Below, piece after piece: positions 15,576-60,158 of a stretch of DNA of 64,000 bases (positions within the stretch are counted from its first letter, which is position 1; every line of letters starts with the position of its first letter). Under the pieces are notes generated by a model. That model did no database searches. It saw nothing but the letters and a program-made list of their open reading frames with translations, and was not told where the DNA came from. Source of the DNA: an uncultured bacterium (lineage in GTDB: Bacteria; Bacillota_I; Bacilli_A; RFN20; CAG-826); contig CASFKG010000001.1 of the NCBI GenBank assembly GCA_949295325.1, forward strand, positions 391,928-455,927, given 5' to 3'. Position numbers and translations under genes: made by a program.

Positions 15576-15585
15576 GTGCTTCTCC

Positions 15586-17622
<2,037 letters not shown>

Positions 17623-18914: not shown

Positions 18915-18985
18915 GCGGATAGTTTACTACTACGTAGTAAAAAAGAAAACGCCTTTCGGCGTCTTCCAAGCACTATTCAGAAGGC

Positions 18986-20107: not shown

Positions 20108-20258
20108 GACTTGGCCCCCCTTAAGTTTATTTATTCTTTCTTGCTTTTTATTAACTACGACGATGATTATGTCGGTGGAAAATGTGGATAACTCGATTTT
20201 CGACCTCCGACATTATACTTTTCCTATTTCGGTCTGACACGGATTTCTTAGGAAATCA
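20108..20258. promoter_or_regulatory. oriC part 2: dnaA-dnaN intergenic DnaA box plus AT-rich candidate unwinding element
   Basis: Perfect DnaA box TGTGGATAA at 20183-20191 and an AT-rich tract at about 20121-20170 (ttaagtttatttattctttcttgctttttatt). Firmicutes often have a bipartite origin flanking dnaA. Confidence 0.6.
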
Positions 20259-40169: not shown

Positions 40170-40321
40170 GGATATGCTTTTTTGACCCTTTTTAACGGCA
40201 TTTGTCTATTTTTGTATGTGTCCAACCAAGCAAAAAACTCCCGAATCCCCTAACGTTTTTTGCCGGTTTGTCTAGAATTTTTCCTTATGGTGCTCAAATG
40301 CATATCGATAAATTTGAATTG

Positions 40322-40343
40322 CATTTGTAAGCCCTTACAAATG
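40322..40343. promoter_or_regulatory. cre-like 22-bp palindrome (CATTTGTAAG-CC-CTTACAAATG), putative CcpA/LacI-family operator
   Basis: Perfect 10-bp inverted arms. The core TGTAAGCCCTTACA matches the cre consensus TGWAANCGNTNWCA except at the central CG. An extra half-site CAAATGCA lies at 40295-40302. Confidence 0.5.
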
Positions 40344-40376
40344 TTTGAGACTTTTAATGAGATAGAGGAATAGATT

Positions 40377-41810
40377 ATGGATAAGAAGACTCCCCTCCCG
40401 CTTCTATTGGCATTGGGTTCCTTGATTTTGGTGGGCTGCACGAATTCAAACCGCGATGACACCGGCACCGAAACCACGAGCGAATCGAGCATCGACCTCG
40501 ATATAAACGACCTTGACTACATCCTTGATAAATACGACGAGGCCGGATATCAGTACTCCTATTCAGGGGAACCGTGCACCATAACGATGACCCACTGGGA
40601 CTCTTCCGGTGCTTCCGTCGAAAGGGCCGTCATCGAAGCAATGCTGCAGGGCTTCGAGGCCAGATATCCTGACATAAAGGTCATATTGGAAATTTTTCCA
40701 AGTTACGAAGAAACATACGGCAACAACCTCGTTGCCAACAAGGTTACCGACGTCTTCCTGGTTCCGGACGGCGCCTTCACTTCCTGGGCTGGATTCAACA
40801 AGATGGTGAACCTCGACCCTTACATAGCTGCCTCCACCTTGGTCACGCCGGAAGACATGTTCCCGAGCGTCATTTCCCGTTATCAGTACAACTCTGCCGA
40901 GCAGAAAGCCGGCTCGGGTGTCCAACTTGCCCTTCCCAAGGACGTCGGTCCTTACGTCATGTTCTATAACAAGGACCACTTCGACGAGATGGGCGTTGAC
41001 TATCCGCCCGATGACCGGATCATGACCATCGACGAAGCCATCGACATGTGGACCGCCCTTACCAAATACGATTCGGACGGCAACACATCGCGTTACGCGT
41101 TGGGCGGCATCGGTCCCGAAGGACTCGTCTGGAGCGCCGGCGGCGACTTCCTCAACGAAACGCGCGACGCCTTCCCGACTTCCGAAAGCGACCTGAACGG
41201 CCTCCGCCGCGGATACCAGTTCCTCCAGGACGCCTATTTGACGACGAAGATCATGCCTCCCAACGAGTGGACCGCCGGCACCGACGCCGAAACGCTTTTC
41301 TCCATGCAGAGGATTTCCACGCTCGTCGCCGGGCGCTGGAACGTCACCTCCTTCCGTAGCCTTGGCTTCGATTGGGACGTCGCCTACGTTCCGGCTTTCG
41401 AAGTAGATCCTGTCAAAAACATGTATAGCGGTTCCGTCGGCTATGCCGTTTTCAACGGAAGCCAGCACATCGAAGCGGCTTGGAAACTGGTCGAGTACAT
41501 CGCTTCGCCGGAAGGACAGGAAATTCTTTCGGCGACCGGTTTCCAAATCCCCTGCTACTACGAACTGGCCAAGTCCGAAGACGTCAGGGCCCGGGAAGCC
41601 GACCTGTTTGGTTACGAGAACTACGATGTCTTCGTCGAGAGTGCACAGAACCAGTCCTACGGCCTCTGGCAGTACCGTTCAAATATTCGTTGGAAGACCT
41701 TGGGCTACGACACCGTTTCGGAGCGTCTCTTCAGTACCGATCCTTCGACCCGTTATACCGTCGACGAATTCCTGAATGTCGCCAGGACTGAGGTTAACAA
41801 ATACCTATAA
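40377..41810 (+). CDS. ABC sugar transporter substrate-binding lipoprotein (family-1 SBP)
   Basis: Lipobox LILVGCTNS and a 477-aa extracellular solute-binding fold, followed by two MalFG-type permeases. Confidence 0.85.
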   Translation: MDKKTPLPLLLALGSLILVGCTNSNRDDTGTETTSESSIDLDINDLDYILDKYDEAGYQYSYSGEPCTITMTHWDSSGASVERAVIEAMLQGFEARYPDIKVILEIFPSYEETYGNNLVANKVTDVFLVPDGAFTSWAGFNKMVNLDPYIAASTLVTPEDMFPSVISRYQYNSAEQKAGSGVQLALPKDVGPYVMFYNKDHFDEMGVDYPPDDRIMTIDEAIDMWTALTKYDSDGNTSRYALGGIGPEGLVWSAGGDFLNETRDAFPTSESDLNGLRRGYQFLQDAYLTTKIMPPNEWTAGTDAETLFSMQRISTLVAGRWNVTSFRSLGFDWDVAYVPAFEVDPVKNMYSGSVGYAVFNGSQHIEAAWKLVEYIASPEGQEILSATGFQIPCYYELAKSEDVRAREADLFGYENYDVFVESAQNQSYGLWQYRSNIRWKTLGYDTVSERLFSTDPSTRYTVDEFLNVARTEVNKYL

Positions 41811-41829
41811 GCGCTAATGCGGTGAAACC

Positions 41830-42738
41830 ATGGTCAAAGCGAAAATAAGCCGCAAAACTAAGAAGAAAATCGATGCCTTGGAGGGCATGGCCTTTGCCGC
41901 GCCCCTTGTTATAGGTTTGCTTCTGTTTCTGGCATTTCCTTTGGTTTATGCGGTGATAATTTCCTTCACCGACTATACCTTTGCCACCGCGAACTCGTTT
42001 AATTTCATAGGATTCCAGAACTACATCGATGCCTTCAACGACCACTACTTCGTGAGGTCGCTGCTGAATGCCCTGATCAACTGCATAGGCGTTCCCATCG
42101 GAATGGCTCTTGCCTTGGTGCTTTCCGTCTTCCTCACGAAGATAAAGTGCTTCTCCAGCTTCTTCCGCTCGGTCCTTTATATCCCTACCGTCTGCGGCGC
42201 TGTCGCCATTACCTTCATTTGGAGTTGGATGTACCAGCCTCTTTACGGACTTATCGCCCAGCTCGGTAATGTTCTGGGTTGGGGGACCATCAATTTCCTG
42301 GGCGAAGACCTCTTTCTTCCTTCCATGATAGCGATGGGCATCTGGTCGGGGCTTGGAACGTCGATATTGCTGCTTTACGCGGCTCTCAAAAACGTACCCA
42401 AAGCCTTGTACGAAGCCGCCCAGGTCGACGGTGCCAACGCCGTTCAGCAGTTCTTCCACATAACGCTGCCGGCGGTCAGTCCCATCACTTTCTACATACT
42501 ACTCACCGGCATATCCGGTTCCTTCCAGGACTTCACCCGCTTCCAGGTCATGCGGGGCGACCAGATAACCGATTGGTCGATAATGCCGGTCTGGTACATA
42601 TACAAATACACTACCAACGCCTTCAACTACGAAGCCGGTTATGCCTGCGCGATGGGCATAATACTCGGATTGATCCTCCTCGCTTTTTCAGCCGTCCAGT
42701 TCGTGGCCAGCCGCTATTGGGTACATTACGATGAGTAA
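41830..42738 (+). CDS. ABC sugar transporter permease (MalF/UgpA-type)
   Basis: 6-TM protein with an EAA-loop region (...LYEAAQVDGAN...). Confidence 0.85.
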   Translation: MVKAKISRKTKKKIDALEGMAFAAPLVIGLLLFLAFPLVYAVIISFTDYTFATANSFNFIGFQNYIDAFNDHYFVRSLLNALINCIGVPIGMALALVLSVFLTKIKCFSSFFRSVLYIPTVCGAVAITFIWSWMYQPLYGLIAQLGNVLGWGTINFLGEDLFLPSMIAMGIWSGLGTSILLLYAALKNVPKALYEAAQVDGANAVQQFFHITLPAVSPITFYILLTGISGSFQDFTRFQVMRGDQITDWSIMPVWYIYKYTTNAFNYEAGYACAMGIILGLILLAFSAVQFVASRYWVHYDE

Positions 42739-43624
42739 AAAAGAGTTGAACGGGCAGGCGACGGCCATATCGCGGAGCACGGCCAAGAAATTGGCCAAGG
42801 CCCGGCATTTTCTAAGCCAGACCGGGATGTATCTCGTTTTGATAATATTCGCCCTCGTTATACTGATTCCTTTCCTGTTCGCCGTATCGACTTCCTTCAC
42901 GACCCCGGAAAACATTTTCGATTTCAAGTGGATACCTTCGCCTATAGATATCGGGAACTACGACAAACTGTTTACCGAAAACAACGTCTGGCAGGCGTTC
43001 CTCAACACCTTCCTCTACACCGTTCCGACCACTATAGTCGGTACCTTCTGCAGCGCCCTTTGCGCCTATAGCTGCGCCCGCATGAAATGGCCGGGGAGAA
43101 GGGTTGTCTACTACCTTATTCTGGCCACCATGGTCATTCCCGGCGTGATTACCCTCATGCCCAGTTACGTCCTTTTTGTCAATTTCTACGGCTGGTATGG
43201 CACCGCGCTTCCTATCGTCATCCCGGGAATGTTCGGATCGGCTGGGGCCATGTTCTTCCTCCACCAGTACTTCAAGACCCTTCCCAAGGAACTGGAAGAA
43301 GCGGCCGAAATCGACGGCATGGGACGTCTTAGGATCTTCCTGAAAATCATATTGCCGCTTTCGGTTCCGGCCGTTTTGACCCAGTTCATCTTGGCCTTCA
43401 ACGGGGCCTACAACGACTATATGACCCCGTTGCTTTACGTCGGAACCAATCCCGACATGTTTACCATCCAGCTATTGGTAAGCGGCCTTTCGACCGCCCA
43501 TAACCGCCAATACACCCTCCTTATGGCCGGGGCCGTTACCGCCCTGGTCCCGACGCTGATTCTCTATGTGGCCTGCCAACGCTTCTTCGTGGACGGCATC
43601 GCCATGACCGGTTTGAAGGAGTAA
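42731..43624 (+). CDS. ABC sugar transporter permease (MalG/UgpE-type)
   Basis: 6-TM protein with EAA motif (...LEEAAEIDGMGRLRIF...). Overlaps the upstream permease by 8 nt. Confidence 0.85.
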   Translation: MSKKELNGQATAISRSTAKKLAKARHFLSQTGMYLVLIIFALVILIPFLFAVSTSFTTPENIFDFKWIPSPIDIGNYDKLFTENNVWQAFLNTFLYTVPTTIVGTFCSALCAYSCARMKWPGRRVVYYLILATMVIPGVITLMPSYVLFVNFYGWYGTALPIVIPGMFGSAGAMFFLHQYFKTLPKELEEAAEIDGMGRLRIFLKIILPLSVPAVLTQFILAFNGAYNDYMTPLLYVGTNPDMFTIQLLVSGLSTAHNRQYTLLMAGAVTALVPTLILYVACQRFFVDGIAMTGLKE

Positions 43625-43626
43625 CC

Positions 43627-45999
43627 ATGAACAAGAAAGCACTGTATTTCGCCCTCCCCTTGGCCCTCGTTCTTGCTTCCTGCGGCCCTTCCTCGGGCGG
43701 GCCTTCTTCAGACAGCTCTTTGCAAAGCAGCCAAACCGACTACGATTTGCCGGACGCTCCGGCCGGATCGGTAACCGAGGGGAAAATCACCGTCGGCAAC
43801 GCTTCGATTTCTTTTGTTTTGAACAATTCGGGGAGGTATTACGTCGATTTTGGCTATTCCGGCAATACGGTCTATCGGAGTGTTGCCCCGGCGATAATCA
43901 ACACGAGAAGCGAGTCTTCCGGCATACTGGCAACCTACGACGAGAACACCTACGAGAGTACTTACGGGCGTCTCGAGGAAACCTCTTTCGGGATATTGGC
44001 AACCGCGAACATCGAAACCGGCGAAGGAAGCGTCTTCGAGGTAGCGGATGCCTATTACATACCGCTTGGATCTTCTTCTTTCGCCATCGAAAGGACCGTG
44101 ACGGTCAAGCAGAAGAAAGGCGAGGACGAAGGTTTCCAAAGCGAGATGTTGATTACCAATGTCGAAGGGAGCAGCAATTACGAAGACTTTACCTATTTCA
44201 TTCCGGCGATCATATATAAAGACACTGCGGAAATGAGGTCTGGTTCGATTGCCAGCAACCTCAACCTGACAGGGAAGGTCATGGTGAAGGAAACCCGTAC
44301 CGGGCTTCCCCTTTCCTTTATCCGCCATGACGGCGGGCCGTCCATCGGCCTATACCACTACGAACCGGAAATTAGCGTGGGCGACGAGATAGGCGGGGGC
44401 TTCAACGGCGAAGTAAGCGAAATGCTCGAATACGGATCGGTAGGGTTCCAAATCACCCCGCTTGTTGGCGTTGATCTCTGCTACCCCGCCACCGAAGGAC
44501 CCAATACCTATGATTCCGGCCAAGGCTGGGCCAAGCGTTTCCATCCGGTCGAAGAAGGATTCTCCCACAACTACACGATGGGTATCGTTATCCGCAGCGA
44601 CGGGGATTACAACACCGCGATGGCGGAAACGTATAAGGAAGCCTTCAGGGCGCAGAGCCACGAGTATCCGAAGGTAGACATGGAACAGATTTACGAAGAC
44701 AACCTTTATCTTTTCGGGCAGGAGTATCGGACATTCGGTGACAACGACGTCTACGGCGGCCTTCCTTGGTCGCTGACCCTGCCGGATGCCTCGGCCGACC
44801 AGGGTTACGCTTCCCAGTCGGGCTTCGTCGGGCAGCAGGCCCCGGCTGCTTATCAAATGCTTCGTTATGGTAGAAGCAACGGCGATAGCGGCTATATCGA
44901 AATGGGCACCAGGGCCCTCGATTTCTGGACTTCCCGAACCATCATGGGCAACTATTTCCCAATCATCTGGTGGGATCCCGGAAACGGATCTGCAGGCGGG
45001 ACTAGAAGGGACTACCCGACTTTCTTGCGCTGCATGGTCGATGCCGCCGAAGGCATTTTGGACGGGTATCTGATGGAAAAAGGCCTCGGCGTGGAACACG
45101 CCCAATGGCTTGAAGCGGTGACCAAAATCGCCGACAACCTGGTTGCCGTTCAAAACGAAAACGGTTCATTCTACCGGGCTTATAACCTTAACGGCACCGT
45201 CTGCACCGATACTTCCAACGCGACCTATCAGGGCACTAGCGAGCTGAATACTCCGATTGCCGTCCGCTTCTTGGCCAAGATGTTCGAGATGACCAGCGAT
45301 GCCAAGTACAAGGAGGCTGCCCTTTCCGCGGCCGATTACAGCTACGACGAACTTTATCTCGGACGCGGAAAATATGTCGGCGGTACCCCCGATAATCCCA
45401 ATACCGTCGACAAGGAAGCCGCGGTCTATGCGATGTATTGCTTCGAAGCCGCCCATTCCCTGTCCGGCGACGACAAATATCTGGCCGCCGCCGAACATGC
45501 AGCGGTCTGTGCGATGAGCTGGGTATATACCTACGACTTCGCGGTCCCAAGCCAACTGTCAAATCAGGAAATAAACACCTTCGAGGACGGCGGAGTCATC
45601 GGCTTTTCCTTCATTGCCACCGGGCATAGCTCCGCTGACAACTACGCCGCCTATATCTTCTTTGCCCTGTACCGTCTTTACCTCGAATCCGGCGACGACT
45701 TCTATTTCGACGCCGCGCTTCTCATCGAAAACGCCAGCAAATTGAGCAACGACTACGACGGACGCATGGGCTTCAAATACCGGGCCATGGGTCCCGAAGC
45801 CACCACCGTGGCCGACTTCAACTTCGCCTCCGTTGGAACCTGGCTTCCCTGGAGCGGTATCGCCAACATCGAGCCGATCATCCACTTCAAGACCTGCTTT
45901 GGAACCTATTCCATCGAAGATCTCACGATGGATCTGGGCGAACAGAAAGCCGCTCTCGAAGCCTATGGCATGGGCGGCAAACAAATTGGAAACGTTTAG
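43627..45999 (+). CDS. lipoprotein of unknown function, possible (alpha/alpha)6-toroid glycoside-hydrolase-like protein
   Basis: Lipobox LVLASCGPSS, 790 aa, with a Trp/Tyr-rich helical-hairpin C-terminal half. Starts 3 nt after the permease stop. Confidence 0.6.
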   Translation: MNKKALYFALPLALVLASCGPSSGGPSSDSSLQSSQTDYDLPDAPAGSVTEGKITVGNASISFVLNNSGRYYVDFGYSGNTVYRSVAPAIINTRSESSGILATYDENTYESTYGRLEETSFGILATANIETGEGSVFEVADAYYIPLGSSSFAIERTVTVKQKKGEDEGFQSEMLITNVEGSSNYEDFTYFIPAIIYKDTAEMRSGSIASNLNLTGKVMVKETRTGLPLSFIRHDGGPSIGLYHYEPEISVGDEIGGGFNGEVSEMLEYGSVGFQITPLVGVDLCYPATEGPNTYDSGQGWAKRFHPVEEGFSHNYTMGIVIRSDGDYNTAMAETYKEAFRAQSHEYPKVDMEQIYEDNLYLFGQEYRTFGDNDVYGGLPWSLTLPDASADQGYASQSGFVGQQAPAAYQMLRYGRSNGDSGYIEMGTRALDFWTSRTIMGNYFPIIWWDPGNGSAGGTRRDYPTFLRCMVDAAEGILDGYLMEKGLGVEHAQWLEAVTKIADNLVAVQNENGSFYRAYNLNGTVCTDTSNATYQGTSELNTPIAVRFLAKMFEMTSDAKYKEAALSAADYSYDELYLGRGKYVGGTPDNPNTVDKEAAVYAMYCFEAAHSLSGDDKYLAAAEHAAVCAMSWVYTYDFAVPSQLSNQEINTFEDGGVIGFSFIATGHSSADNYAAYIFFALYRLYLESGDDFYFDAALLIENASKLSNDYDGRMGFKYRAMGPEATTVADFNFASVGTWLPWSGIANIEPIIHFKTCFGTYSIEDLTMDLGEQKAALEAYGMGGKQIGNV

Positions 46000-46016
46000 T
46001 AAAGGAGAGGAGAAGT

Positions 46017-48866
46017 ATGAACACTTTACTAGCCATGGTGCTGGCCCTTTCCTCCTTCGGCGGCCTTGCATCGGGAGACAGGCTTGGTGCCTTTGTCCCC
46101 TCTGACTGGTCGCTGTCGGGAGGCGGGGCGGTAAGTGCCTACTACGACATCGGCGACACCATAACCGCCAAGAGCACCCAAACAACGTTAAGGGGCAATT
46201 TCCTCATCAATGAATCCGAAACGCATCTTGGCGATTATACCGTTTCTATAACCGGAAGCGCCGAAGAGTCCTGGCCGGTAAGCAAATCAGTCCAGATCGG
46301 CATAGTCCCATGGTACTTGGATAGTAACAACTACATTCTCGTCTATATGGAATGGAGTCCGACTGAAAGACCAACCGGCATGCGCGTAGTCGAATTCACC
46401 GGGCGCATCGACGGACAGAACCCGGTCGTCTACAAGGACGGCGGATTCGTCCAATCGGAATGGAACGATGCCTGGATGGACGGGGCCAACGAACCATATG
46501 CCATCGATCCGTCGAGCGACTGGACGTTCAGCGTCAAAAAGGAAAGGAGCGCGGCCGGCGATACCGACGAGTTCACGGCCTATATAAACGGCAACAAAGT
46601 CGGATTCTATGGATTCCGTGACGTTCCCAAGTATTCGGCCAAGCCTGCCAAATCAGGTATCTACTGCTATAACGACAACGTCACCATAACCGATTATTCG
46701 GTGACGCCGGTCGCCGATGATAGTTTGTTTCACGATATCGGGGGAGGCTATGTCGGCAAGGCCGCTAGCGGCGACTGGGACGTAAGCGGGAACACCCTTT
46801 CTATCGATGCCTCTTCCAGCGTCGATCCCATATCCTCTACCATTGCCATTACGGAAAATACCTACGAAGGCAATTTCCGCTTAAAGGGAACGTTTGCTTC
46901 TTCCTCCCTCGTCAATAACGGCGGCATCGGCTTGGTGCCTTGGTACCAAGACGAAACCAACTATTTGACTGCTTATGTCGGTATGGTTGGAGGAACCAAA
47001 TCGCTCATGGTCGAAGGAATGGTCACCGCATATTCGGGCGGTGGCATGAGCCAAACCCCTATTAACGACACATTACCGTTGGATTCGGTGGAAAACGTCG
47101 GAGATATTTCGCTTATTGCCGATAAACAAGGCAGCAGAATTTCCCTATATCTCGAAGGTGGCGAAGATAACAAGCTCGAAGTAAGCAATCCCGCTTTCGC
47201 CACCGCTTCTTATATCGGGACTGCGGTCAGTGCCTGTAACGTAAGCATCGACTTCGAAAGCGAAGCCCTCGTCTACAACTCCTTCGACTGGTATGACCTA
47301 ACTCTCGGAGGAAACAAGGTAAGCGTCAAATCCGCGACCGATGCCGAAGGCCTCTTCGCGTACGACGAAGGCACCTACACAGTTTCCGATGAAGCGGTCG
47401 TTTCAGGCGATTTGACCAAACAGGCCGCCTTGTCCCTAGCCACTTCCTATGTCGGCGAAATATCCGTTTCCGCCGATTTCGCTCCTTTGGCGGAAGGCCA
47501 GGAATACGGTCTCTATCCGTTTTTGGTCGACGAAGACAACTACGTGCGCATCGGTCTTAAATCCGATGCATTTACCGTTTACTTGGCAAATAACGGAACC
47601 GAAACCCAGAGAGGTTATGTCCTGCCCGCCAATTTCGATTCCGCGGCTTCTCACAATATTTCCGCCGAACTCGCCAGCGGTACGCTCAATGTTACGGTAG
47701 ATGGCGCTTCGGTAGTCGAGAACCTGCCTGTCGATGGTTACGATTTCTCCGACTCCCTTATGATCGGTTTCTTCTTTGCCGGCAAGGGCGGCAGCGTTTC
47801 CAATCTTAGCTATAGCGGTTTCTATCCTAATTCCGCGAAGAACGTTGGAGCCTGGACCGTCTACGGTCCCCGGCCGGACACCTGGACATTCGACGAAGAA
47901 AACAACACCATCACCGGAAAATACGATGGAGGTACCGTTTGGCAGGCTACCAACGCACTAATGAGCAACGAAAAAGCCGATTTCTGGTGCGCTTCCACCA
48001 TCAATGTGTCCGCGGTGACCGCTTCCGAGCACAAAGTCGGACTCGTCCCCTATTATCTCGATTCCAACAACTACGTCTTCGTCTGGTTCAGCCGCTGGGC
48101 CGGTTCTACCGCCAACACCAATGTCACCGTGCGTATCAACGGCCAGATCCTCCCGCCGGAATGGGGAGAAAGGGAAATCGGAATCCAATTCGAAGGGACC
48201 GACAACAAACTCGAAGCCCATATCGAAGGGGACACCGTTTCCGTTTATGTTTCCGGGGCCTTCGCACCGGTATATACCGGCAATTACCCCGGATTGTCGG
48301 AGAGAACGCTGTCCGGAGCGAAGAGCGGCCTTAACATCTCCAACGTTTCGGCCACCTTCAAGGACACCGTCCTCGGTGCCGACGATAGGCCATATGCCTT
48401 CAACGAGAAGCCGTCCATCAACGAAATTGGCACCCGCGTCACCGCCGGCGTGGTAGGCGAAAGGATTGCCCTGCCGATCTACACCGCGACCAACAGCAAC
48501 AACGATCCGCTGACGGCGGTTGTCAACGTTACGGATCCTTCAGGCGAAGCCGTGGTTCTCGAAAGGAACGGATTTGTCCCCGAAACGGCCGGTATCTACC
48601 ACGTCGAAGTTACCTGCACCGACGACTGGGGCAATTCCGCCGACCCCGTTTCCTACGACATAACGGTAACAGAAGCCCAAACCGGCGGAGACACTTCTTC
48701 AGAGCCGGACACCGGCGGCAACACCGGCGGAGGGACAACCGATCCCGAAGGCAACGGGCTAGGTCTAATGCTCGGCATTGTGTTCGGTTGCCTAGGCGGC
48801 GCAGCCGTTATCGGCCTGGCTATCTTCCTCTTCATACGTTATCGCAACAAAAAGACAACGGAATAA
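46017..48866 (+). CDS. large surface protein with four tandem copies of an uncharacterised beta-rich module, Gly/Thr linker and C-terminal TM anchor
   Basis: Signal peptide and four roughly 200-aa repeats, each with the motif G-[IL]-[VY]-P-[WFY]-[YL]-x-D-x-[DN]-N-Y. A low-complexity GGDTSSEPDTGGNTGGGTTDPEGNG stalk follows. C-terminal hydrophobic helix plus RYRNKKTTE. Confidence 0.7.
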   Translation: MNTLLAMVLALSSFGGLASGDRLGAFVPSDWSLSGGGAVSAYYDIGDTITAKSTQTTLRGNFLINESETHLGDYTVSITGSAEESWPVSKSVQIGIVPWYLDSNNYILVYMEWSPTERPTGMRVVEFTGRIDGQNPVVYKDGGFVQSEWNDAWMDGANEPYAIDPSSDWTFSVKKERSAAGDTDEFTAYINGNKVGFYGFRDVPKYSAKPAKSGIYCYNDNVTITDYSVTPVADDSLFHDIGGGYVGKAASGDWDVSGNTLSIDASSSVDPISSTIAITENTYEGNFRLKGTFASSSLVNNGGIGLVPWYQDETNYLTAYVGMVGGTKSLMVEGMVTAYSGGGMSQTPINDTLPLDSVENVGDISLIADKQGSRISLYLEGGEDNKLEVSNPAFATASYIGTAVSACNVSIDFESEALVYNSFDWYDLTLGGNKVSVKSATDAEGLFAYDEGTYTVSDEAVVSGDLTKQAALSLATSYVGEISVSADFAPLAEGQEYGLYPFLVDEDNYVRIGLKSDAFTVYLANNGTETQRGYVLPANFDSAASHNISAELASGTLNVTVDGASVVENLPVDGYDFSDSLMIGFFFAGKGGSVSNLSYSGFYPNSAKNVGAWTVYGPRPDTWTFDEENNTITGKYDGGTVWQATNALMSNEKADFWCASTINVSAVTASEHKVGLVPYYLDSNNYVFVWFSRWAGSTANTNVTVRINGQILPPEWGEREIGIQFEGTDNKLEAHIEGDTVSVYVSGAFAPVYTGNYPGLSERTLSGAKSGLNISNVSATFKDTVLGADDRPYAFNEKPSINEIGTRVTAGVVGERIALPIYTATNSNNDPLTAVVNVTDPSGEAVVLERNGFVPETAGIYHVEVTCTDDWGNSADPVSYDITVTEAQTGGDTSSEPDTGGNTGGGTTDPEGNGLGLMLGIVFGCLGGAAVIGLAIFLFIRYRNKKTTE

Positions 48867-48881
48867 CTTATAGATAATCGC

Positions 48882-48918
48882 AAAAAAGTCGGTGTGGCCT
48901 TGACCAGCCGACTTTTTC
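48882..48918 (+). terminator. Rho-independent terminator
   Basis: AAAAAGTCGG...CCGACTTTTT hairpin (inner TGG...CCA pairing) followed by a T-run. Confidence 0.5.
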
Positions 48919-49042
48919 GTTTCATGGTGCCAAAATGCATAAAGGGCAAGTCTCGCGATATTAAGCAGCATAGTGCCAATTCATACAATGAAACTGCGAA
49001 GAACATCGTTTTGCTGGAACCAGCAGTTGAATTTTGAATCGA

Positions 49043-49056
49043 TGTAAGCGCTTACA
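49043..49056. promoter_or_regulatory. catabolite responsive element (cre) TGTAAGCGCTTACA
   Basis: Perfect 14-bp palindrome matching cre consensus TGWAANCGNTNWCA. It sits 17 bp upstream of the ATG at 49073 and abuts the RBS AGGAGA. Confidence 0.55.
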
Positions 49057-49072
49057 AGAAAGGAGACCGATC

Positions 49073-50989
49073 ATGAACGGAAAATGGCTCAGAATCGCCG
49101 GTGTCGCATTGCTCGCCGCTGGCGTTGTTACGGCCGGAACCGTCATTGCGACTTTGCCCGACACACTTCTGATGGCCGGAGCCAATGACGGCTACACCAT
49201 CAATCTCGACAGCGAAAACGCCCCGGAGCTCGCCGAAGGGACCGGTAGCATAACCGCTGTTAGCAATACTGGCTACGGCTTAGTTGGAATCGTCTATGAC
49301 GGGGCCACATCCAATGAAGGCAACCACGTTGCTCTAAACGAAGGAGGGAGCATCAGGAACTCCGACCAGATTACCGCCATTACCGATATTCAAATAAATT
49401 ACACCGGAACTCTCACGTTGGGCTTCGGTCGGACTGCTGAGGTTTTTGTTCCCGTCGCCGGTATCCCTAGCGGCGTTCCGACCGAAGTGGTTGGAACCCC
49501 TCTGTATTTTGATATTTCCGCCGGCGCCGGCGGGGCCGTTATCGAAAGCATAACCGTTACGTATTCGTGCGATCCGTCCCCGGTTTACGCGGATTTGGAC
49601 GTAACCGTTCGCCTTCCCGGCTATCTTGAGGGCGGCGAGGCCGTGACATTGAAACAAGGCGATTCCTCCGCGTCCATGAGTGTTACAACCGAAGACATAT
49701 TGACATACGAGGCGAACGTCAAAAATGTCGATCCCTATAGTGAGTTCACGGTCGTCGTCGGCGAAGCCACTAGCAACCCATTCCGTCTCGATTCCCTAAA
49801 TGGCCTGAGGGCCACGAAGGTTCTGTCTTCGGAAATCGACTACGACGGGTTCGTGAAAGGATTCGAGATGACGGACTACAAAGGTTCCGTTACCTATTCG
49901 CAGAGCGCGCCAGACGCCATAAAAGTCACGAGCAACGAATCCAACGGAAACTTCCTAACCAAGGACGCCGAACTTGGCAATAAGTATTCCGTAGAAGCCC
50001 ACATTCAAGGCACCGTTGATGCGTTGCCGGTTGCCAATAACATCAATGCCGGTCTCCTTGCCTATTACCAAGACGCCGACAATTGGCTGGCATTCTATGC
50101 CGAATGGAAGGTTGCTACCGAAACCAACAGGCCAAACGAATTGGCTTCTATCCAACCGGCCGTTTCAACAAACGGAGTTGTCAGTTATCCTTCTCCGATC
50201 TGGTGCGACGGAATTAGTGCCACCCCTCATGACGGGCTTGACCTCAAGATCGATGTCGAGATATCCACTGCCGGCGTCGTTGCCACCGCCACGGCATTGG
50301 TCGGCGGACAGACCAAGACCGGATCCGCGACCATGTCCGGAACCTTCGCGGAAGGCAGCAAAGTCGGTGTCTACTGTTTCGGCGATACCGTAGATTTCAC
50401 TTCCTTCTCCTACGAAAAATTGGAGATAACGACCGATTGGCAGGTCCTTGCCCCTGGCAGCAATCCTACTACATTCAAAGAGGACGGCGGTTCACTGGTC
50501 GTCAACAACGATGGAAACTGGAAAGCCGGTTTTGTCGGCAAGCCCGTTACCGTTGGTGCATCCTACAGCATCTCGTCTCATATTGCGGGAACTACTACCG
50601 GAAATGTCGAAAGCGAGTTGATGCTCGGATTCCTTGCCTACTATACCGATCCGGACAACTTCATCATCGCGTATGTCCAGTACTCACCAACAGACAGGCC
50701 CCACGAAGCACGGGAAGTCCAGATTACCGGCCATATCGGCGGGAACGATATCGGATGGTGCGATATCTGGACCGACGGGAACGGCGTTCATCCGGCAGAC
50801 GGCTTCGACCTGAAAGTCGACGTCGAAATCGGAGGCGGGAACGCCACCGTCTCGGCGACCATGACCACCGGGGCCGGCTATGTGAAAACCGGTAGTCGGA
50901 CGGTCGAAAACGTGGAAAATCTTCCTACCCATCTCGGCGTTTATTGCCAAAACGAGACGGCGACCTATACCGGCCTCGTCATCGAATAA
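49073..50989 (+). CDS. surface protein paralog with N-terminal signal-anchor and two or more copies of the same beta-rich repeat module
   Basis: Start chosen at MNGKWLRIAGVALLAAGVV (RBS AGGAGA 6 nt upstream). Repeats carry GLLAYYQDADNW and GFLAYYTDPDNF motifs like those of the 46017..48866 protein. Confidence 0.7.
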   Translation: MNGKWLRIAGVALLAAGVVTAGTVIATLPDTLLMAGANDGYTINLDSENAPELAEGTGSITAVSNTGYGLVGIVYDGATSNEGNHVALNEGGSIRNSDQITAITDIQINYTGTLTLGFGRTAEVFVPVAGIPSGVPTEVVGTPLYFDISAGAGGAVIESITVTYSCDPSPVYADLDVTVRLPGYLEGGEAVTLKQGDSSASMSVTTEDILTYEANVKNVDPYSEFTVVVGEATSNPFRLDSLNGLRATKVLSSEIDYDGFVKGFEMTDYKGSVTYSQSAPDAIKVTSNESNGNFLTKDAELGNKYSVEAHIQGTVDALPVANNINAGLLAYYQDADNWLAFYAEWKVATETNRPNELASIQPAVSTNGVVSYPSPIWCDGISATPHDGLDLKIDVEISTAGVVATATALVGGQTKTGSATMSGTFAEGSKVGVYCFGDTVDFTSFSYEKLEITTDWQVLAPGSNPTTFKEDGGSLVVNNDGNWKAGFVGKPVTVGASYSISSHIAGTTTGNVESELMLGFLAYYTDPDNFIIAYVQYSPTDRPHEAREVQITGHIGGNDIGWCDIWTDGNGVHPADGFDLKVDVEIGGGNATVSATMTTGAGYVKTGSRTVENVENLPTHLGVYCQNETATYTGLVIE

Positions 50990-51007
50990 GGCCTTAGCCT
51001 CCCTTAA

Positions 51008-51037
51008 AGCGGGTTCCTTCAACGGGACCCGCTTTTT
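51008..51037 (+). terminator. Rho-independent terminator
   Basis: AGCGGGT-tccttcaacggg-ACCCGCT followed by TTTTTG. Overlaps the last codons of the convergent ABC ATPase gene. Confidence 0.5.
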
Positions 51038-51714
51038 GTTGTACGGTCCGCCACCAAGTTAAGCTTCCCGCCTTCCAAACGGTAATGCCTGTCGAAGTGG
51101 CGCGACTCGTTTACGTCGTGTCCGACGTATATCAAGGTCGTGTCGCTGTTTTTTACCAGACGGAACATTTCTTTTAAAAGGGCGTCTTTTGTTCTGACGT
51201 CCACGCCGGAAAATGGCTCGTCGGCCAGGAAGAGCGACGGTTTCCTTACCAGCGCCCGGTAAAGGGCCACGGTTTCCTTTTGGCCGAGGCTCAGCTCTTT
51301 AGGCTTGAAATTGAGCAGTTTTGCCACCGGCGAGCCTTTGATTATTTCCTTGATCAGTTTGTCTTTCTCCATTCTTTTCAGGCCGTAGCCGTCCAAAGCC
51401 GCATAGAGATTCCCGTAGACGGTCAGAAACGGATATAGGAATGCTTCCTGGAAGCAAAAGGCGACGTCGCGGCTCGAAGCCTTGATGTCCAGTATTTCCT
51501 CTCCCCTGAATTTCAGGGAACCTTCATCGGGGTCCAATAACCCGGCAAGGATTTTCAGCAATGTGGTTTTGCCCTCCCCGCTTTGGCCGCTAAGGAAGAT
51601 GGTATCCCCTTGATCGAATTCGAAGCAGAGATTTTCGAACACTTTGGTTACCGGCTCTTTCCTCGTTTTCCCTTTGTAGGAAAAATCCAATCCCCGGAGC
51701 ACGTAATCACTCAT
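51019..51714 (-). CDS. ABC transporter ATP-binding protein with degenerate signature motif
   Basis: Walker A GQSGEGKTT, Walker B LFLADEP, and signature LSLGQKE in place of LSGGQ. 231 aa. Confidence 0.8.
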   Translation of the reverse strand: MSDYVLRGLDFSYKGKTRKEPVTKVFENLCFEFDQGDTIFLSGQSGEGKTTLLKILAGLLDPDEGSLKFRGEEILDIKASSRDVAFCFQEAFLYPFLTVYGNLYAALDGYGLKRMEKDKLIKEIIKGSPVAKLLNFKPKELSLGQKETVALYRALVRKPSLFLADEPFSGVDVRTKDALLKEMFRLVKNSDTTLIYVGHDVNESRHFDRHYRLEGGKLNLVADRTTKSGSR

Positions 51715-52570
51715 TTTGGCCCTCCCTATAAAGCCCTTTCCGGTATTGGGAAGGAAAACCGTTTTTGTTTACGGATTCGTCGGCCATGTAGGCAAACAAA
51801 AGAAAGTTCGAAATTCCGGCAAGGGAGTTGAAGAAGGCATAGAGGAAATCCAGAACGAGCACCGCGATTATGCAGATGCCGGAAGGAATGGCGCCCGCGA
51901 ACAAATAGAAAAGGGCAAACGGCCATATGCCCATCAGGGCGGCCAGAAGGGAATAAGGCAGGTATTTGAATAGAAGCCCGGCCGCGGCCTTGAAATATCC
52001 GGGCACCGTATTTTTGTAGATGTCGCGCAGGAATATCATGTATGTAAGGGAAACGAACAAAAGGCCAAGCAAAACAAAATAGACGATCAGCAGGCCGTAA
52101 TGGAGGAACACCGCTTCCCCGGACGATACCAAGGAAATGAGAAAATAGAGTCCGTAGGCAGCCGTTCCGTAAGCCAGGCCCGTTGCCAGATTGGGCTTCC
52201 AGTTGTCCTTTAGTCCTTCGAGAAAATCGTCTTTCAGGATGTAACCCTCGTTGTAGCTGTAGCGGCGATATACCCTCGCCGCACCGGTTGCGGCAAGCGA
52301 ATAGAGGACGGAAAAGGCAATCAAGGACAAATAGGAAAGGCGCCTGAAGGCTACAAGTTCAAGCCATTGTTTTTCGGCATCTTCGGCGTAGGCGATGATG
52401 ATCGAGCCTTCGGCAATCAGTCCGTAAAGGCCGTAGGCCATAACGGGCAGAAGAAAAAGGAAAACGATTAGGGAGAGTTTGAAAAGTACTAGCTTTTGGT
52501 ATTTCAGGGCATTCAAAAGGAGCCCCCTTCTCGTAAGCGGCAGTTCGAGATCGCGGCTAACTATTTTCAC
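51707..52570 (-). CDS. polytopic membrane protein (putative permease partner of the ABC ATPase)
   Basis: 287 aa with about 6 hydrophobic helices. Overlaps both the downstream ATPase start and the upstream GH2 stop. Confidence 0.6.
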   Translation of the reverse strand: MKIVSRDLELPLTRRGLLLNALKYQKLVLFKLSLIVFLFLLPVMAYGLYGLIAEGSIIIAYAEDAEKQWLELVAFRRLSYLSLIAFSVLYSLAATGAARVYRRYSYNEGYILKDDFLEGLKDNWKPNLATGLAYGTAAYGLYFLISLVSSGEAVFLHYGLLIVYFVLLGLLFVSLTYMIFLRDIYKNTVPGYFKAAAGLLFKYLPYSLLAALMGIWPFALFYLFAGAIPSGICIIAVLVLDFLYAFFNSLAGISNFLLFAYMADESVNKNGFPSQYRKGLYREGQNE

Positions 52571-54344
52571 CGGTGATTATCTTAGTCAGTTTTTCCAAGG
52601 GAATCTTGGGTTTTCTATCGGCGTCCAAGATGCCGTTTTGCTCGCTGTAGGTATCGGTCAGCTGGGTCAAGCAATATCCGGCCACGGATTTGTTCGTCCG
52701 CGCGGCGTCGAGTATGCCCTTTAGCCTTTCGGCGAAGGAGTCTTCGTCATTCACGACGCCATAACCCCAGGCTCCTTCCTTCACCGAGTAGCCGATTCCT
52801 CCTATTTCGTCCAGGAAAATCGGTTGGCCTTGGTAATTGTAGCCATTGGCGAAAGTAAGGCGGGTCTGCGAGTATTTCGGAAGTCCTTTGTTTTGCGTGA
52901 TTATGTCGATATCGCTGTAGAAGTCCGCCAATTCCGCCGGGTTTTGCGCGTAATTGTGAAGCGTTATGGCATCGCTCAGAGTATGTTCCCAACCGTCGTT
53001 GGAAATGACGATTCTCGTCTCGTCCAAGGCTTTGGTCGCGTGGTAGAGGGCAAGGCTTAGCTCTTGCTCGTTTTTCCTCGAATCTATGTCCGGCACGCCC
53101 CATGATTCGTTTATAGGCATGTACATCACGATGGACGGGTGGTTGTAGTGGCCCAAAACCGCTTCCGGCCATTCCCTCAATAGCGACCTAACCGTGTTGT
53201 CGCCAAACGAATACGGCGAGGGCATTTCCAGGCTGCAAAATAGACCGACCACGTCGCAGGCGTAGTAGAAGCGGTCGTCTTCGATTTTCTGGTGCATCCT
53301 CACGCCGTTGAAGCCCAGGGATTTGATGAGGGTGACTTCCCTCATTATTTCCCCCATGTCCTTGTAGGTAGGACCGCTATCCGGAAGGAAACCCTGATCC
53401 ATGACCATGCTCAGGAAAACCGGATTCCTATTTAGGAGAAACGCGTTGTTGCGTGTTTCGAAGAAACGGACGCCGAAATAGGTATCGACGGCGTCTGAAC
53501 CATTCCCGGCCTTGAGAATCGCCCTTACCTCGTAGAGTTCCGGGCTCTGGGGCGACCATAGGCCGCGGTTGAAGTCGCTTCCTTCGTCGGTTTTCGTCGA
53601 TACGGAAATGCGGCCCTTGGATTGGCTCGAGGCCGCGGAAAACGTTCCGATCGGCTTGCCTTTGAAACTGACATCGAGGGAAAGCACCATGTTTTGGACC
53701 GGATTTTCGATCTCGTAGTCCGCAACCGCGGTTTCTCCTCCCTTTGACGGGGTAAAACGCAGGGATTTGATCCTGGTATGGGGAACTTCCTCGATGAAAA
53801 CGCTTTGGTAAATGCCGCTAAAAGGCGTATACCAGCATCCCCAAGGCTTCTCACGCCATGACTGCTTCCCGCGCGGTCGGTCGTTGGCGTTGTCGTCTTC
53901 GACCCTCACGGCAATCAGGTTTTCGCCGTTTTTCACGCTGCCGGTTATGTCGATTTGGAAGGAACTGAAACCGCCTTCGTGGGTGCCGCAAAGCATACCG
54001 TTGACGTAAATCTCGGCCTTGTAGTCGACAGCCATGAAGTTCAGGAGCAGATCATTGCCTTTAGCCGGCCTATGCAGCTCCCTTTTTAGGAAATACCAAA
54101 CGACGGGATGGTAGCCTTCTTCCCCTATCCCAGAACTTTTGGTCTGGTAGGCAAAAGGCACGGTGATACTGCGAATTTCGTTAGGTATTCTCTTATAAAA
54201 ACCCTTAGCTTTCCCCAAATTGCCGTCATCGTATAGGAAACCCCATTCGCCGTTAAGCAGTGTGTAGTTTTCTCTTACGAAGTTAGGACGTGGGTAGGCT
54301 TCCCGGAAGCCTCTTACATGGCGGATATGTTCCATAATTAACAT
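52557..54344 (-). CDS. glycoside hydrolase family 2 (beta-galactosidase/beta-glucuronidase-like)
   Basis: 595 aa with GH2 domain order (sugar-binding jelly roll, Ig-like, TIM barrel) and a ...FNGVRMHQKIED... segment resembling the GH2 catalytic region. Confidence 0.8.
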   Translation of the reverse strand: MLIMEHIRHVRGFREAYPRPNFVRENYTLLNGEWGFLYDDGNLGKAKGFYKRIPNEIRSITVPFAYQTKSSGIGEEGYHPVVWYFLKRELHRPAKGNDLLLNFMAVDYKAEIYVNGMLCGTHEGGFSSFQIDITGSVKNGENLIAVRVEDDNANDRPRGKQSWREKPWGCWYTPFSGIYQSVFIEEVPHTRIKSLRFTPSKGGETAVADYEIENPVQNMVLSLDVSFKGKPIGTFSAASSQSKGRISVSTKTDEGSDFNRGLWSPQSPELYEVRAILKAGNGSDAVDTYFGVRFFETRNNAFLLNRNPVFLSMVMDQGFLPDSGPTYKDMGEIMREVTLIKSLGFNGVRMHQKIEDDRFYYACDVVGLFCSLEMPSPYSFGDNTVRSLLREWPEAVLGHYNHPSIVMYMPINESWGVPDIDSRKNEQELSLALYHATKALDETRIVISNDGWEHTLSDAITLHNYAQNPAELADFYSDIDIITQNKGLPKYSQTRLTFANGYNYQGQPIFLDEIGGIGYSVKEGAWGYGVVNDEDSFAERLKGILDAARTNKSVAGYCLTQLTDTYSEQNGILDADRKPKIPLEKLTKIITGENS

Positions 54345-54373
54345 TATTCTAGACGGACTAAGCGATAGCCATC

Positions 54374-55282
54374 ATGTTCGGCGCGTGGCATTATATGCAA
54401 GTTGACACCATGGGAGTTAAGGCTAAGTTCAACGACGATTTCCTCAAAGGGAGTCTGACCTTATACAACTACAATCCGAGCGTTTCCCGTTCCTTTTTGA
54501 TTTACCCGCAGCTGGTCGGCCACCAGATCGTGGGTCCCGCTTACTACAACGAAGTGGAATTCGGGAACACCTACATGCTCAATTTCACCGTCTCCGGTTC
54601 CGGCGAATTCCGCAGTCCGGGCTTGACCCAAACCGTCGGGCCAGGCGACTTGATATTCATTCATAACTACCTCCATCATTCTCTGAAGCCAAGCAAGGGC
54701 AAGCCGTGGGAGTTCTACTGCATCCATATTTTCGATAACGACATTGTCAGCCGTTTTTACCGTTCGGTCTTGGCCAAGCAGGGATTTTTGATCCGCGGGT
54801 TTCCCAAGCAGAAGGTCGTGCCGGCCATTCTCTCGATTCTAGACAAGCTCGAGGAACAGACGGAGCACGACGACTTCGCCATTTCCAAGGTCCTATACAA
54901 CATGCTTGCCGATATTACCGAGGAAGCCGAATCGCGGGCCTTCAAATCATTCAATCCCGCGGTTGACGACGTCGTGGCCTTCATCAAGGACAATTTCGAC
55001 AAGCCGTTGCCCCTTAAGGCCATATTGGCCAAGACGACATATAGCAAAAACCATCTCGAGCGCCTGTTCAAAGCCCAGATGAACATGACCATCCAGGAAT
55101 ACATTTTTTACCTGAGACTGCTGAGGAGCCAGGAACTTCTGGTTTCGACCGATATGCCGTTAAAGGAAATCGCGGACAAGGTGGGATTAAGCGAGTACCG
55201 TTCCCTTTATCACATGTTCAAGAAAGCAACCGGCTTCTCACCAGACGAATATAGGAGGGTGGCCGGGTCCAAAAAAGCATGA
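54374..55282 (+). CDS. AraC-family transcriptional regulator (cupin sensor plus HTH)
   Basis: N-terminal cupin-like domain and C-terminal tandem HTH (...YSKNHLERLFKAQMNMTIQEYIFYLRL...). Divergent from the GH2 gene. The start could be a downstream Met. Confidence 0.85.
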   Translation: MFGAWHYMQVDTMGVKAKFNDDFLKGSLTLYNYNPSVSRSFLIYPQLVGHQIVGPAYYNEVEFGNTYMLNFTVSGSGEFRSPGLTQTVGPGDLIFIHNYLHHSLKPSKGKPWEFYCIHIFDNDIVSRFYRSVLAKQGFLIRGFPKQKVVPAILSILDKLEEQTEHDDFAISKVLYNMLADITEEAESRAFKSFNPAVDDVVAFIKDNFDKPLPLKAILAKTTYSKNHLERLFKAQMNMTIQEYIFYLRLLRSQELLVSTDMPLKEIADKVGLSEYRSLYHMFKKATGFSPDEYRRVAGSKKA

Positions 55283-60117: not shown

Positions 60118-60158
60118 AAAGAGCCCCGGTTCACTAAAGTGAAAGCGTTTTCAGAGTC

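Follow-up and report, generated by a model that had tools for sequence, protein, structure and literature searches.

The stretch analyzed here comprises 64,000 nucleotides of contig CASFKG010000001.1 (assembly GCA_949295325.1, positions 391,928 to 455,927; hereafter the window) from an uncultured bacterium of the CAG-826 lineage. It contains a block of ten genes (40377-55282) that is best explained, with a probability of roughly 0.7, as a Gram-positive polysaccharide utilization locus (gpPUL) of an uncultured gut Bacilli lineage, most probably directed at an arabinofuranose-bearing plant glycan. An original prediction, made without database searches, had listed the ten genes with their families; positions and assignments are borne out by a map of open reading frames (ORFs) and by Pfam and NCBIfam scans. 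The plus strand opens with a lipoprotein substrate-binding protein (SBP; 40377-41810; Pfam SBP_bac_1, E 4.5e-23; lipobox LILVGC) of a CUT1-type ABC sugar importer, followed by a MalF/UgpA-like permease (41830-42738; Pfam BPD_transp_1; NCBIfam UgpA and GlcT) and a MalG/UgpE-like permease (42731-43624; Pfam BPD_transp_1; NCBIfam UgpE and MalG). Next to them lies the gene for a 790-residue surface lipoprotein (LIPO; 43627-45999; lipobox LASC), which, to judge from its predicted model, is presumably a glycan-cleaving enzyme of an unclassified six-hairpin family. The term unclassified denotes absence from Pfam (2025), NCBIfam (2026) and the PDB by sequence.

Two surface proteins come after LIPO, both recognized by a hidden Markov model (HMM) of a shared repeat module: SURF4 (46017-48866), a 949-residue type-I membrane-anchored protein with a transmembrane (TM) helix at residues 913-931, and SURF2 (49073-50989), a 638-residue protein anchored by an N-terminal TM helix. 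The public gene call agrees with the ATG at 49073 as the start of SURF2. A hairpin scan located a terminator-like hairpin with a 12-bp stem (51006-51035) between the convergent genes for SURF2 and an ABC ATPase. The latter is of the MalK/UgpC/MsmX type without the C-terminal regulatory domain (51019-51714, minus strand; Pfam ABC_tran), and it is encoded together with a MusI-like polytopic membrane protein (51707-52570, minus strand; NCBIfam MusI_fam, below the curated cut-off; at least four TM segments) and a cytoplasmic glycoside hydrolase (GH) of family GH2 from a furanosidase-related subgroup (52557-54344, minus strand; Pfam GH2 N-terminal, Ig and TIM domains; no signal peptide). Consecutive start and stop codons of these three genes overlap by 8 and 14 nt. 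An AraC-family regulator (54374-55282, plus strand; Pfam AraC_binding and HTH_18) is divergent from this GH2 operon.

For the comparison of gene order, ORFs were called, clustered and ordered in 83 related loci (L numbers below). The core (GH51)-SBP-permease-permease-LIPO-SURF4 is colinear in about 45 of them (about 45 of 79 when related genome loci are counted), from gut Bacilli, Clostridia and Mollicutes-like metagenome-assembled genomes (MAGs), and SURF4-type proteins with three to six modules stand directly behind LIPO in about 45 loci. All ten genes are kept in L001-L003, with 32-65% protein identity and a different chromosomal context; positional equivalents of SURF2 are present there as well as in L053, L014, L017 and L018. 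The triple of ATPase, MusI-like and GH2 genes was seen in at least 14 loci, in most cases accompanied by a divergent AraC gene; 25 of the loci have an AraC-family gene, and many core loci have GH2, ATPase and AraC no more than 10 kb away. Further recurrent neighbors are carbohydrate esterases (CEs) of family CE2, SURF2-type proteins, a winged-helix regulator and an FGGY pentulose-kinase-like gene. The surface genes thus co-occur strongly with the transporter, and often with GH2, in related loci.

LIPO homologues are also found in polysaccharide utilization loci (PULs) of Bacteroidota. The arrangement GH51, SusC, SusD, (DUF3823), LIPO, (LIPO) and a hybrid two-component system regulator (HTCS) is present in L026, L027, L036 and L072; in L027 and L072 the order reads GH51, SusC, SusD, DUF3823/DUF5013 lipoprotein, LIPO, LIPO, HTCS, and GH51, SusC, LIPO and HTCS are kept in L029. 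A GH28 gene adjoins the B. timonensis PUL. In two Bacteroidales loci (L037 and L049), LIPO is an orphan among housekeeping genes, which is uninformative as to substrate. The loci show that what is conserved at the center of the system is LIPO and not the kind of transporter. The colinear core and the placement in Bacteroidota PULs together support the original prediction of a PUL analogue.

The lipobox of LIPO (LASC) is conserved, with C19 kept in at least 90% of 50 homologues. Its AlphaFold2 model (pLDDT 92.3) consists of an N-terminal β-sandwich (about residues 50-325) followed by an (α/α)6 barrel (about residues 328-790). The best whole-chain Foldseek matches are the polysaccharide lyase (PL) BACCELL_00875 of family PL27 (PDB ID: 5no8; E 1.5e-9, 9% identity, TM-scores 0.37/0.42) and PL26; other fold matches include GH88, GH105, GH94 phosphorylases, GH76 and sugar epimerases. 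No family in Pfam (2025) or NCBIfam (2026) reached its curated threshold. Within the LIPO family, sub-threshold partial matches were recorded to Pec_lyase (37 of 50 members) and GH127_cat (23 of 50), and the single protein and a family profile searched against PDB sequences reached at best E ~1e-3, covering only one helical hairpin of GH76 and PL10. Two assignments were tried and rejected. As a PL10 pectate lyase (Pec_lyase, PF09492), LIPO scores 20.3 bits against a cut-off of 22, over only 47 residues, and its profile matches the PL10 structure 1gxo with E 0.025 in one hairpin. As a GH127 β-L-arabinofuranosidase, it gives partial and sub-threshold matches, and the conserved Cys cluster is absent; GH127 (HypBA1) has a Cys/Glu zinc site and a Cys nucleophile.

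In the LIPO family, 44 columns are invariant (many of them Arg, Asp, Glu or Lys), including R468, D472, R517, R547, D589, D595, E597, D671, K705 and E724. Because of the conserved lipobox, these columns and the place of the gene in PULs, we read LIPO as a putative surface-exposed enzyme, a hydrolase or a lyase. A word-index search returned 61 homologues, one of which carries the database name 'pectate lyase', and a scan of species-representative genomes found 299 stretches encoding LIPO relatives. These come from gut Bacilli (Enteromonas, Scatosoma, CAG:826, and CAG:449), Clostridia (Christensenellaceae, Oscillospiraceae, and Lachnospiraceae), Mollicutes-like MAGs (Haloplasma, Anaeroplasma, and 'Tenericutes') and Bacteroidota (B. 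timonensis, Alistipes, Muribaculaceae, and Paraprevotella), as well as from single Actinomycetota and Planctomycetota genomes. Tandem paralogues are frequent (L026, L036, L063, and L072 in Bacteroidota; also L033, L066, and L075), with two copies in Bacteroidota PULs and three in an Anaeroplasma MAG, which suggests a division of labor within the family, e.g., endo versus exo action.

Several lines of evidence bear on the substrate. The closest solved relative of SBP is AbnE, the arabino-oligosaccharide binder of Geobacillus (PDB ID: 6rjy, E 4e-29). The GH2 enzyme is most similar to 7xyr (E 2e-75, full length), 7sf2 and the β-D-galactofuranosidase 9j6n. In the 2025 subdivision of GH2, 7xyr belongs to GH2_19 and 9j6m (the same enzyme as 9j6n) to GH2_18, the two forming the group of α-L-arabinofuranosidases and β-D-galactofuranosidases termed furanosidase group III (PMC12243196). 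Judged by its nearest PDB relatives, the GH2 of the window appears closest to this GH2_18/19 subgroup; its NE acid/base motif (INESWG) and nucleophile Glu (LDEIGG) are both retained, in contrast to 7xyr. GH51 (ArfA-like, 553 bits) is the commonest neighbor in both phyla, being present in 24 loci, and GH2 occupies in window-like loci the role held elsewhere by GH51. The FGGY kinase gene of the window (33321-34982, plus strand) is nearest to xylulokinase XylB (253 bits, below the cut-off); it recurs beside the cassette in unrelated lineages (L020, L032, and L050) and stands directly behind SURF4 in a Haloplasma MAG, which suggests a link to pentose catabolism. The commonest fusion partners of the surface module are GH43 and CE2. 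From the kinship of SBP with AbnE and of GH2 with furanosidases, from the GH51 neighbors and from the GH43 and CE2 fusions, we infer that the substrate is probably an arabinofuranose-decorated glycan of arabinan, arabinogalactan or arabinoxylan type.

If LIPO were a polysaccharide lyase or a uronate-specific hydrolase, the block would instead constitute a gpPUL for an acidic glycan of the rhamnogalacturonan-I, arabinogalactan-protein or gum-arabic type, in which GH2, GH51 and CE2 strip only arabinose, galactose and acetyl decorations. This alternative is considered unlikely. The full-length matches of LIPO to the L-Rha-α-1,4-GlcA lyase of PL27 and the exo-rhamnogalacturonan lyase of PL26 agree with it, as do the unsaturated uronyl hydrolases (GH88 and GH105) among the fold matches, the partial Pec_lyase matches, the invariance of four basic residues (R468, R517, R547, and K705), the name of the one homologue and the GH28 next to the B. 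timonensis PUL. However, LIPO aligns with PL27 and PL26 at low TM-scores (0.2-0.4) and 9% identity, and the 83 loci lack recurrent uronate-catabolism or GH105/GH88 genes, whereas GH51, GH2 and CE2 do recur. SBP, moreover, is nearest to a binder of neutral arabino-oligosaccharides.

The presumed capture of an arabinofuranose-bearing glycan would fall to SURF4 and SURF2. A BLAST comparison of the two proteins revealed shared repeats, and the module HMM finds four copies in SURF4 and two in SURF2 (domain E-values from 1e-16 to 1e-51), in agreement with the two paralogous repeat proteins recognized originally. SURF4 consists of a signal peptide, module 1 (residues 27-235; 46095-46721; the module used for modeling), module 2 (234-421; 46716-47279; E 2e-41), module 3 (421-605; 47277-47831; E 3e-43), module 4 (609-792; 47841-48392; E 5e-51), a membrane-proximal, presumably Ig-like domain of about 90 residues (795-885; 48399-48671; with no significant Pfam assignment), a Gly/Thr/Ser linker, the TM anchor (48753-48809, from a hydropathy scan) and a short basic tail. 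Nearly all SURF4 orthologues have the C-terminal TM helix. In SURF2, the N-terminal TM helix is followed by two unassigned domains and two modules (49829-50431 and 50426-50986). The presumed Ig-like domain is the best-conserved segment of SURF4 (median identity of 53% in 27 orthologues, versus 21-38% for the modules), which hints at a possible protein-protein contact near the membrane; one SURF4 homologue has a faint InlK_D3 Pfam match on record.

Sequence comparison places these modules in no known family. SURF4 and SURF2 matched no Pfam or NCBIfam family at threshold and no relevant family; against CBM66 and PF06439 (DUF1080, 3-keto-disaccharide hydrolase) there was no Pfam or NCBIfam match at E<0.01, and PF06439 is matched only by some distant module-bearing proteins. 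Neither single proteins nor a 34-sequence profile gave anything significant against PDB sequences, and the module profile has no sequence match to 4b1m or 3hbk. When 1.84 billion cluster representatives were searched exhaustively with a profile, 401 module proteins were found at E<=1e-3, with 1 to 13 matched stretches each; the family is rare but real. A word-index search had returned only eight SURF4 and two SURF2 relatives; the tiny family that these numbers implied proved to be a sensitivity artifact, as seen from the profile search and from tblastn on the loci.

The model of module 1 (pLDDT 95) adopts the ConA-like β-jelly-roll (lectin/glucanase) fold. The closest structural neighbor is the carbohydrate-binding module (CBM) CBM66 of B. 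subtilis levanase (PDB ID: 4b1m; score 16.0, 12% identity), followed by the C-terminal β-sandwich domains of GH43 (14-15.5), DUF1080 structures (about 13), legume-lectin-like domains (about 13) and GH16 (about 12). LIPO and the module thus both fall into carbohydrate-related folds and not into adhesin families. Neither of the two outcomes that the original prediction had named as refuting it, confident matches to non-carbohydrate families and absence of the transporter or GH2 from related loci, was seen. The original suggestion that the surface components are undescribed stands at the level of sequence families (Pfam, NCBIfam, and PDB sequences), but not at the level of the fold.

Among 44 module-bearing proteins, fusions with GH43 (5), CE2/GDSL (5-6) and GH30 (1) were found, and such proteins also carry Big_2, dockerin and SLH domains. 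Modules lie C-terminal to GH43 in P0210 and P0213 and after CE2 in P0199, and loci L004 and L010, both relatives, encode fusions of the module with CE2 esterases. In the 27 four-module SURF4 orthologues, positions with at least 93% conservation are occupied mostly by Gly, Trp, Tyr and Asn, with a single Val, Ala and Leu besides. No conserved acid/base pair was found in the modules of these orthologues, and the only conserved acidic residue is D102 in WYxDxxNY, which we take, by similarity to other families, to be a core-strand motif. The CBM-style fusions, the lack of such a pair and the non-catalytic nature of the closest structure favor a probable lectin-like capture role of the module over catalysis. 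Enlarged SURF4 variants with six modules exist as well (P0008, 1545 residues, and L007, 4814-9502); P0008 contains long Cys/His-rich inserts between its modules, with repeated segments, e.g., '...HxYxxSTxYASDxENHxKxCxxC...'.

It is rather improbable that any of the SURF4 and SURF2 modules has catalytic activity of its own, be it as an endo-glycanase, as a lyase or as a 3-keto-glycoside hydrolase (GH16, PL7 or DUF1080 type); the two proteins would then be multi-catalytic enzymes. The fold is common to GH16, PL7, PL18 and DUF1080 enzymes, and the Pfam family 3keto-disac_hyd is matched by some distant module-bearing proteins. The four modules of SURF4 differ markedly (13-25% identity to one another), each being conserved with its own orthologues, and a polar loop of module 1, SEWNDAWMDG, is strongly conserved in the eight closest homologues. 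The composition of the conserved positions nevertheless offers no Glu/Asp pair, the top structural neighbor is a CBM, and elsewhere the module is attached C-terminally to bona fide GH43 and CE2 domains in the fashion of a CBM.

In the reading of the block as a gpPUL for an arabinofuranose-bearing glycan, the minus-strand ATPase and membrane protein are assigned to the importer. The operon of SBP and the permeases encodes no ATPase. The 231-residue ATPase finds its best NCBIfam matches in UgpC, GlcV and MalK (135-119 bits, UgpC 135), confined to the N-terminal 200 residues; it is devoid of the C-terminal regulatory (TOBE/MalK_C-like) domain of the MalK/MsmX type, which is about 340-370 residues long. 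Its Walker A, Q-loop, Walker B and H-loop are intact. The short form is not a product of truncated assembly, since its gene in the window ends right at a strong terminator. ATPases next to a MusI-like gene have 220-240 residues in some lineages and 343-378 residues in L011, L023, L028, L034, L054 and L068. The sole match of the membrane protein is NCBIfam MusI_fam (NF052431; E 7.9e-8, spanning positions 37-185 of the 194 in the profile); Pfam and NCBIfam gave no match to an ABC-2, FtsX or exporter TM-domain family. MusI is summarized in PMC13008276 as an essential fifth component, of unknown function, of the MusEFGK2I maltose importer from C. glutamicum. The pairing of ATPase and MusI-like protein recurs widely, also without GH2 (L054 and L068). 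Because an ATPase is missing from the importer operon, the minus-strand ATPase resembles UgpC, MalK and GlcV, and its partner matches MusI_fam and recurs with it, the two minus-strand genes probably encode the missing parts of the importer. The GH2-ABC operon of the original prediction is better read in this way than as a system of its own.

The proposal that SURF4 and SURF2 are host- or mucus-directed adhesins or envelope proteins adjacent by chance, and that the ATPase and the membrane protein together make up a separate ABC exporter, can appeal to the large, repeat-built and membrane-anchored architecture typical of adhesins and to the ATPase scores against LolD, FtsE and bacteriocin exporters (105-112 bits), but it is very improbable, given that SURF4 keeps its place behind LIPO across classes, that SURF2 has the same operator box and catabolite-responsive element (cre) as the SBP operon (see below), that the module is fused to plant-cell-wall enzymes, that the ATPase scores higher against importer ATPases, and that its membrane partner matches MusI_fam alone and no exporter family.

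Regulatory motifs connect the parts of the proposed gpPUL. An 18-bp box, ATGGTGCnnAAATGCATA, has three matches in the window versus 0.11 expected: ATGGTGCTCAAATGCATA (box 1; 40287-40304, plus strand) 73-90 nt upstream of the SBP start, ATGGTGCCAAAATGCATA (box 2; 48924-48941, plus strand) upstream of the SURF2 gene and ATGGTGTCAACTTGCATA (box 3; 54394-54411, minus strand) oriented towards the GH2 operon. L053 and L001 have the boxes at the same three places and in the same orientations, although the proteins of L001 are only 32-65% identical, which amounts to phylogenetic footprinting. The presence of the box before all three transcription units, here and in two relatives, implies one regulon. 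Box 3 overlaps the longest AraC ORF in its first 12 codons; because this conserved box runs over the annotated start, the true start is probably ATG 54410, so that the GH2-AraC intergenic region measures 65 bp instead of 29.

At both plus-strand promoters, cre-like palindromes lie downstream of the 18-bp boxes. The site upstream of the SBP gene, TGTAAGCCCTTACA (40326-40339), has one mismatch to TGWAANCGNTNWCA, and its position is kept in L053, L005 and L014; the palindrome TGTAAGCGCTTACA (49043-49056), 17 nt before the SURF2 start codon, is perfect and kept in position in L053, L001 and L006. The original description of the importer as cre-controlled had mentioned only the former site; the palindrome and its conserved position are confirmed, and CcpA may act at both sites, as far as the motifs suggest. 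A hairpin with a T-run was seen by eye after SURF4 (about 48884-48918). A scan for sigma-70 promoters returned fewer matches than in shuffled sequence and none at the expected places, and Rfam and tRNA scans detected no RNA element within the locus. Outside the locus, a third and perfect cre-like palindrome, TGAAAGCGTTTTCA (60140-60153), is located upstream of a gene at 60216-60680 with a weak, sub-threshold match to MarR_2.

The proposed mechanism reads binding, catalysis, substrate, transporter composition and regulation from the gene content, folds, synteny and motif conservation. Membrane-anchored SURF4 and SURF2 would display six non-identical ConA-like (CBM66/DUF1080-like) modules for glycan capture, in analogy to the surface glycan-binding proteins (SGBPs) of Bacteroidota, and LIPO would cut the captured polymer into oligosaccharides. 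The AbnE-like SBP might pass these to the two permeases, with the short MalK-type ATPase providing the energy and the MusI-like protein assisting, both supplied by the divergent operon; the resulting importer would have five components, like MusEFGK2I. In the cytoplasm, GH2 would trim the imported oligosaccharides to monosaccharides, GH51 replacing or accompanying it in many relatives. AraC would activate the three transcription units via the 18-bp box, and CcpA-type cre sites at the two plus-strand promoters would mediate catabolite repression.

A bolder generalization is put forward tentatively and may well fail. LIPO could found a new GH or PL family, shared by Firmicute gpPULs and minimal Bacteroidota PULs and always accompanied by an arabinofuranosidase, and the module of about 190 residues could found a new, furanoside-directed CBM family. 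Module-only proteins might be the monoderm and membrane-anchored counterpart of SGBPs, and the MusI-like protein and truncated ATPase might be the obligatory fifth and fourth subunits of a widespread class of Firmicute importers.

Several points weigh against the gpPUL reading or parts of it. The AraC protein is the obvious candidate for binding the 18-bp boxes, which is an assumption. In the ATPase, the signature motif reads LSLGQ instead of LSGGQ, and the MusI_fam match of its partner (32.4 bits) is far below the curated cut-off of 160. L004 and many GH51-type loci have neither an ATPase nor a MusI-like gene within 10 kb, so that the importer can evidently use an ATPase encoded elsewhere. 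The ConA-like fold of the modules also hosts catalytic families, i.e., GH16, PL7 and the 3-keto-glycoside hydrolases of DUF1080. Every relative is a MAG or a metagenome contig. Structure 7xyr is itself uncharacterized and was deposited as 'beta-glucuronidase', and the substrate evidence consists only of neighbors and nearest homologues. Considering that LIPO resembles PL27 and PL26 and has several invariant basic residues (Arg and Lys), and that a GH28 lies beside the B. timonensis PUL, an acidic pectic or arabinogalactan-protein target is equally conceivable.

The block is flanked by pth and mfd upstream and by an S4-domain gene (yabO-like), tilS and ftsH downstream; mfd and the yabO-tilS-ftsH side had been described originally. 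The same pth-mfd site harbors it in the closest relatives, L053 and L005 (74-88% protein identity), and unrelated genes surround it in the more distant L001-L003 and L006. Its GC content (0.50-0.55) equals that of the surroundings, and no flanking direct or inverted repeats, integrase, transposase or GC anomaly were found at its edges. Thus, of the 'accessory island' proposed originally, the break in synteny holds, but with normal GC and no repeats or mobility genes the term does not extend to a mobile element.

Elsewhere in the window, dnaA (20259-21614), dnaN, recF, gyrB and gyrA in a row (12939-21614, minus strand) mark a replication-origin neighborhood; the GC content dips to 0.485 at 20-22 kb, and the glycan locus is about 19-34 kb away from the presumed oriC. 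A bacterial small signal recognition particle (SRP) RNA (10541-10638, minus strand; Rfam RF00169, 54 bits) overlaps a listed ORF of 182 residues (10085-10633), so that this ORF is probably not a real gene. The 64 kb contain no tRNA gene. A 947-residue fusion of an ABC ATPase and an FtsX-type permease (MacB-like architecture; 7138-9981, minus strand) adjoins a P-type ATPase (4655-7141) and is ordinary but unusually large.

Uncultured gut Bacilli related to Enteromonas, CAG-826 and Scatosoma carry the cassette, as do many Clostridia MAGs, and standard annotation misses two of its core parts. Were LIPO and the module to be characterized, CAZy would probably gain an enzyme family and a CBM family, a PUL or gpPUL present in at least 299 species-level genomes from three or more phyla would receive a substrate, and there would be a concrete, testable case of polymers being captured without SusD-type proteins by gut bacteria that are monoderm or wall-less. 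That a MusI-like protein repeatedly accompanies a MalK-type ATPase also opens a way to learn what MusI does.

The literature yielded no described family that matches LIPO or the module. Known six-hairpin enzymes (PL27 BACCELL_00875, PL26, GH88/GH105, GH76, GH127, and AGE-family epimerases) are 9-14% identical to LIPO, which passes no Pfam model, and the catalytic residues of none of these families can be transferred to it. The module shares the ConA-like jelly-roll with CBM66, the levan-binding module of B. subtilis SacC (4b1m), and with DUF1080 (PF06439), but at about 12% identity only and with no match to a family model by sequence. As far as MusEFGK2I of Corynebacterium glutamicum is described in PMC13008276 (citing Henrich et al. 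2013), both systems combine a CUT1-type SBP, two permeases, an ATPase and an extra polytopic membrane protein, and in both two parts are encoded apart; the window differs in the weak MusI_fam match, in an ATPase without the MalK-type C-terminal domain and in its substrate.

PULs of Bacteroidota (with SusC/SusD, SGBPs, and HTCS) follow the same functional logic, and LIPO homologues are actual members of them beside SusC, SusD, a DUF3823/DUF5013 lipoprotein, GH51 and HTCS. The window has no SusC/SusD pair, which is found only in the Bacteroidota loci with LIPO homologues, and hence lies outside the Bacteroidota definition of a PUL: an ABC importer stands for the TonB-dependent transporter, ConA-like module proteins for the DUF3823-type SGBPs, and AraC for HTCS.

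The nearest category is the gpPUL, defined for Roseburia and Eubacterium rectale by at least one enzyme that degrades polysaccharides, a system for carbohydrate transport and a transcriptional regulator (Sheridan et al. 2016, PMC5320581). The window encodes a GH2 with intact catalytic motifs and, in LIPO, a probable second enzyme, their action on polymer versus oligosaccharide being a prediction; an SBP_bac_1 protein, two BPD_transp_1 permeases and an ABC ATPase; and an AraC-family protein with a ligand-binding domain. With all three constituents present, the locus belongs to a known kind of system, and the novelty claimed in the original prediction was overstated. It shares with gpPULs the logic of extracellular cleavage, oligosaccharide import and intracellular trimming (PMC5320581). 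In contrast to those described, its extracellular enzyme and binding modules belong to no recognized Pfam or NCBIfam family, the modules are gathered in two dedicated, TM-anchored and apparently non-catalytic proteins instead of being appended to enzymes, and a dedicated short ATPase and a MusI-like gene are co-transcribed with the intracellular GH2. The category has thus been known since 2016; what is new is the two unclassified families and the MusI-like, putative fifth component of the transporter.

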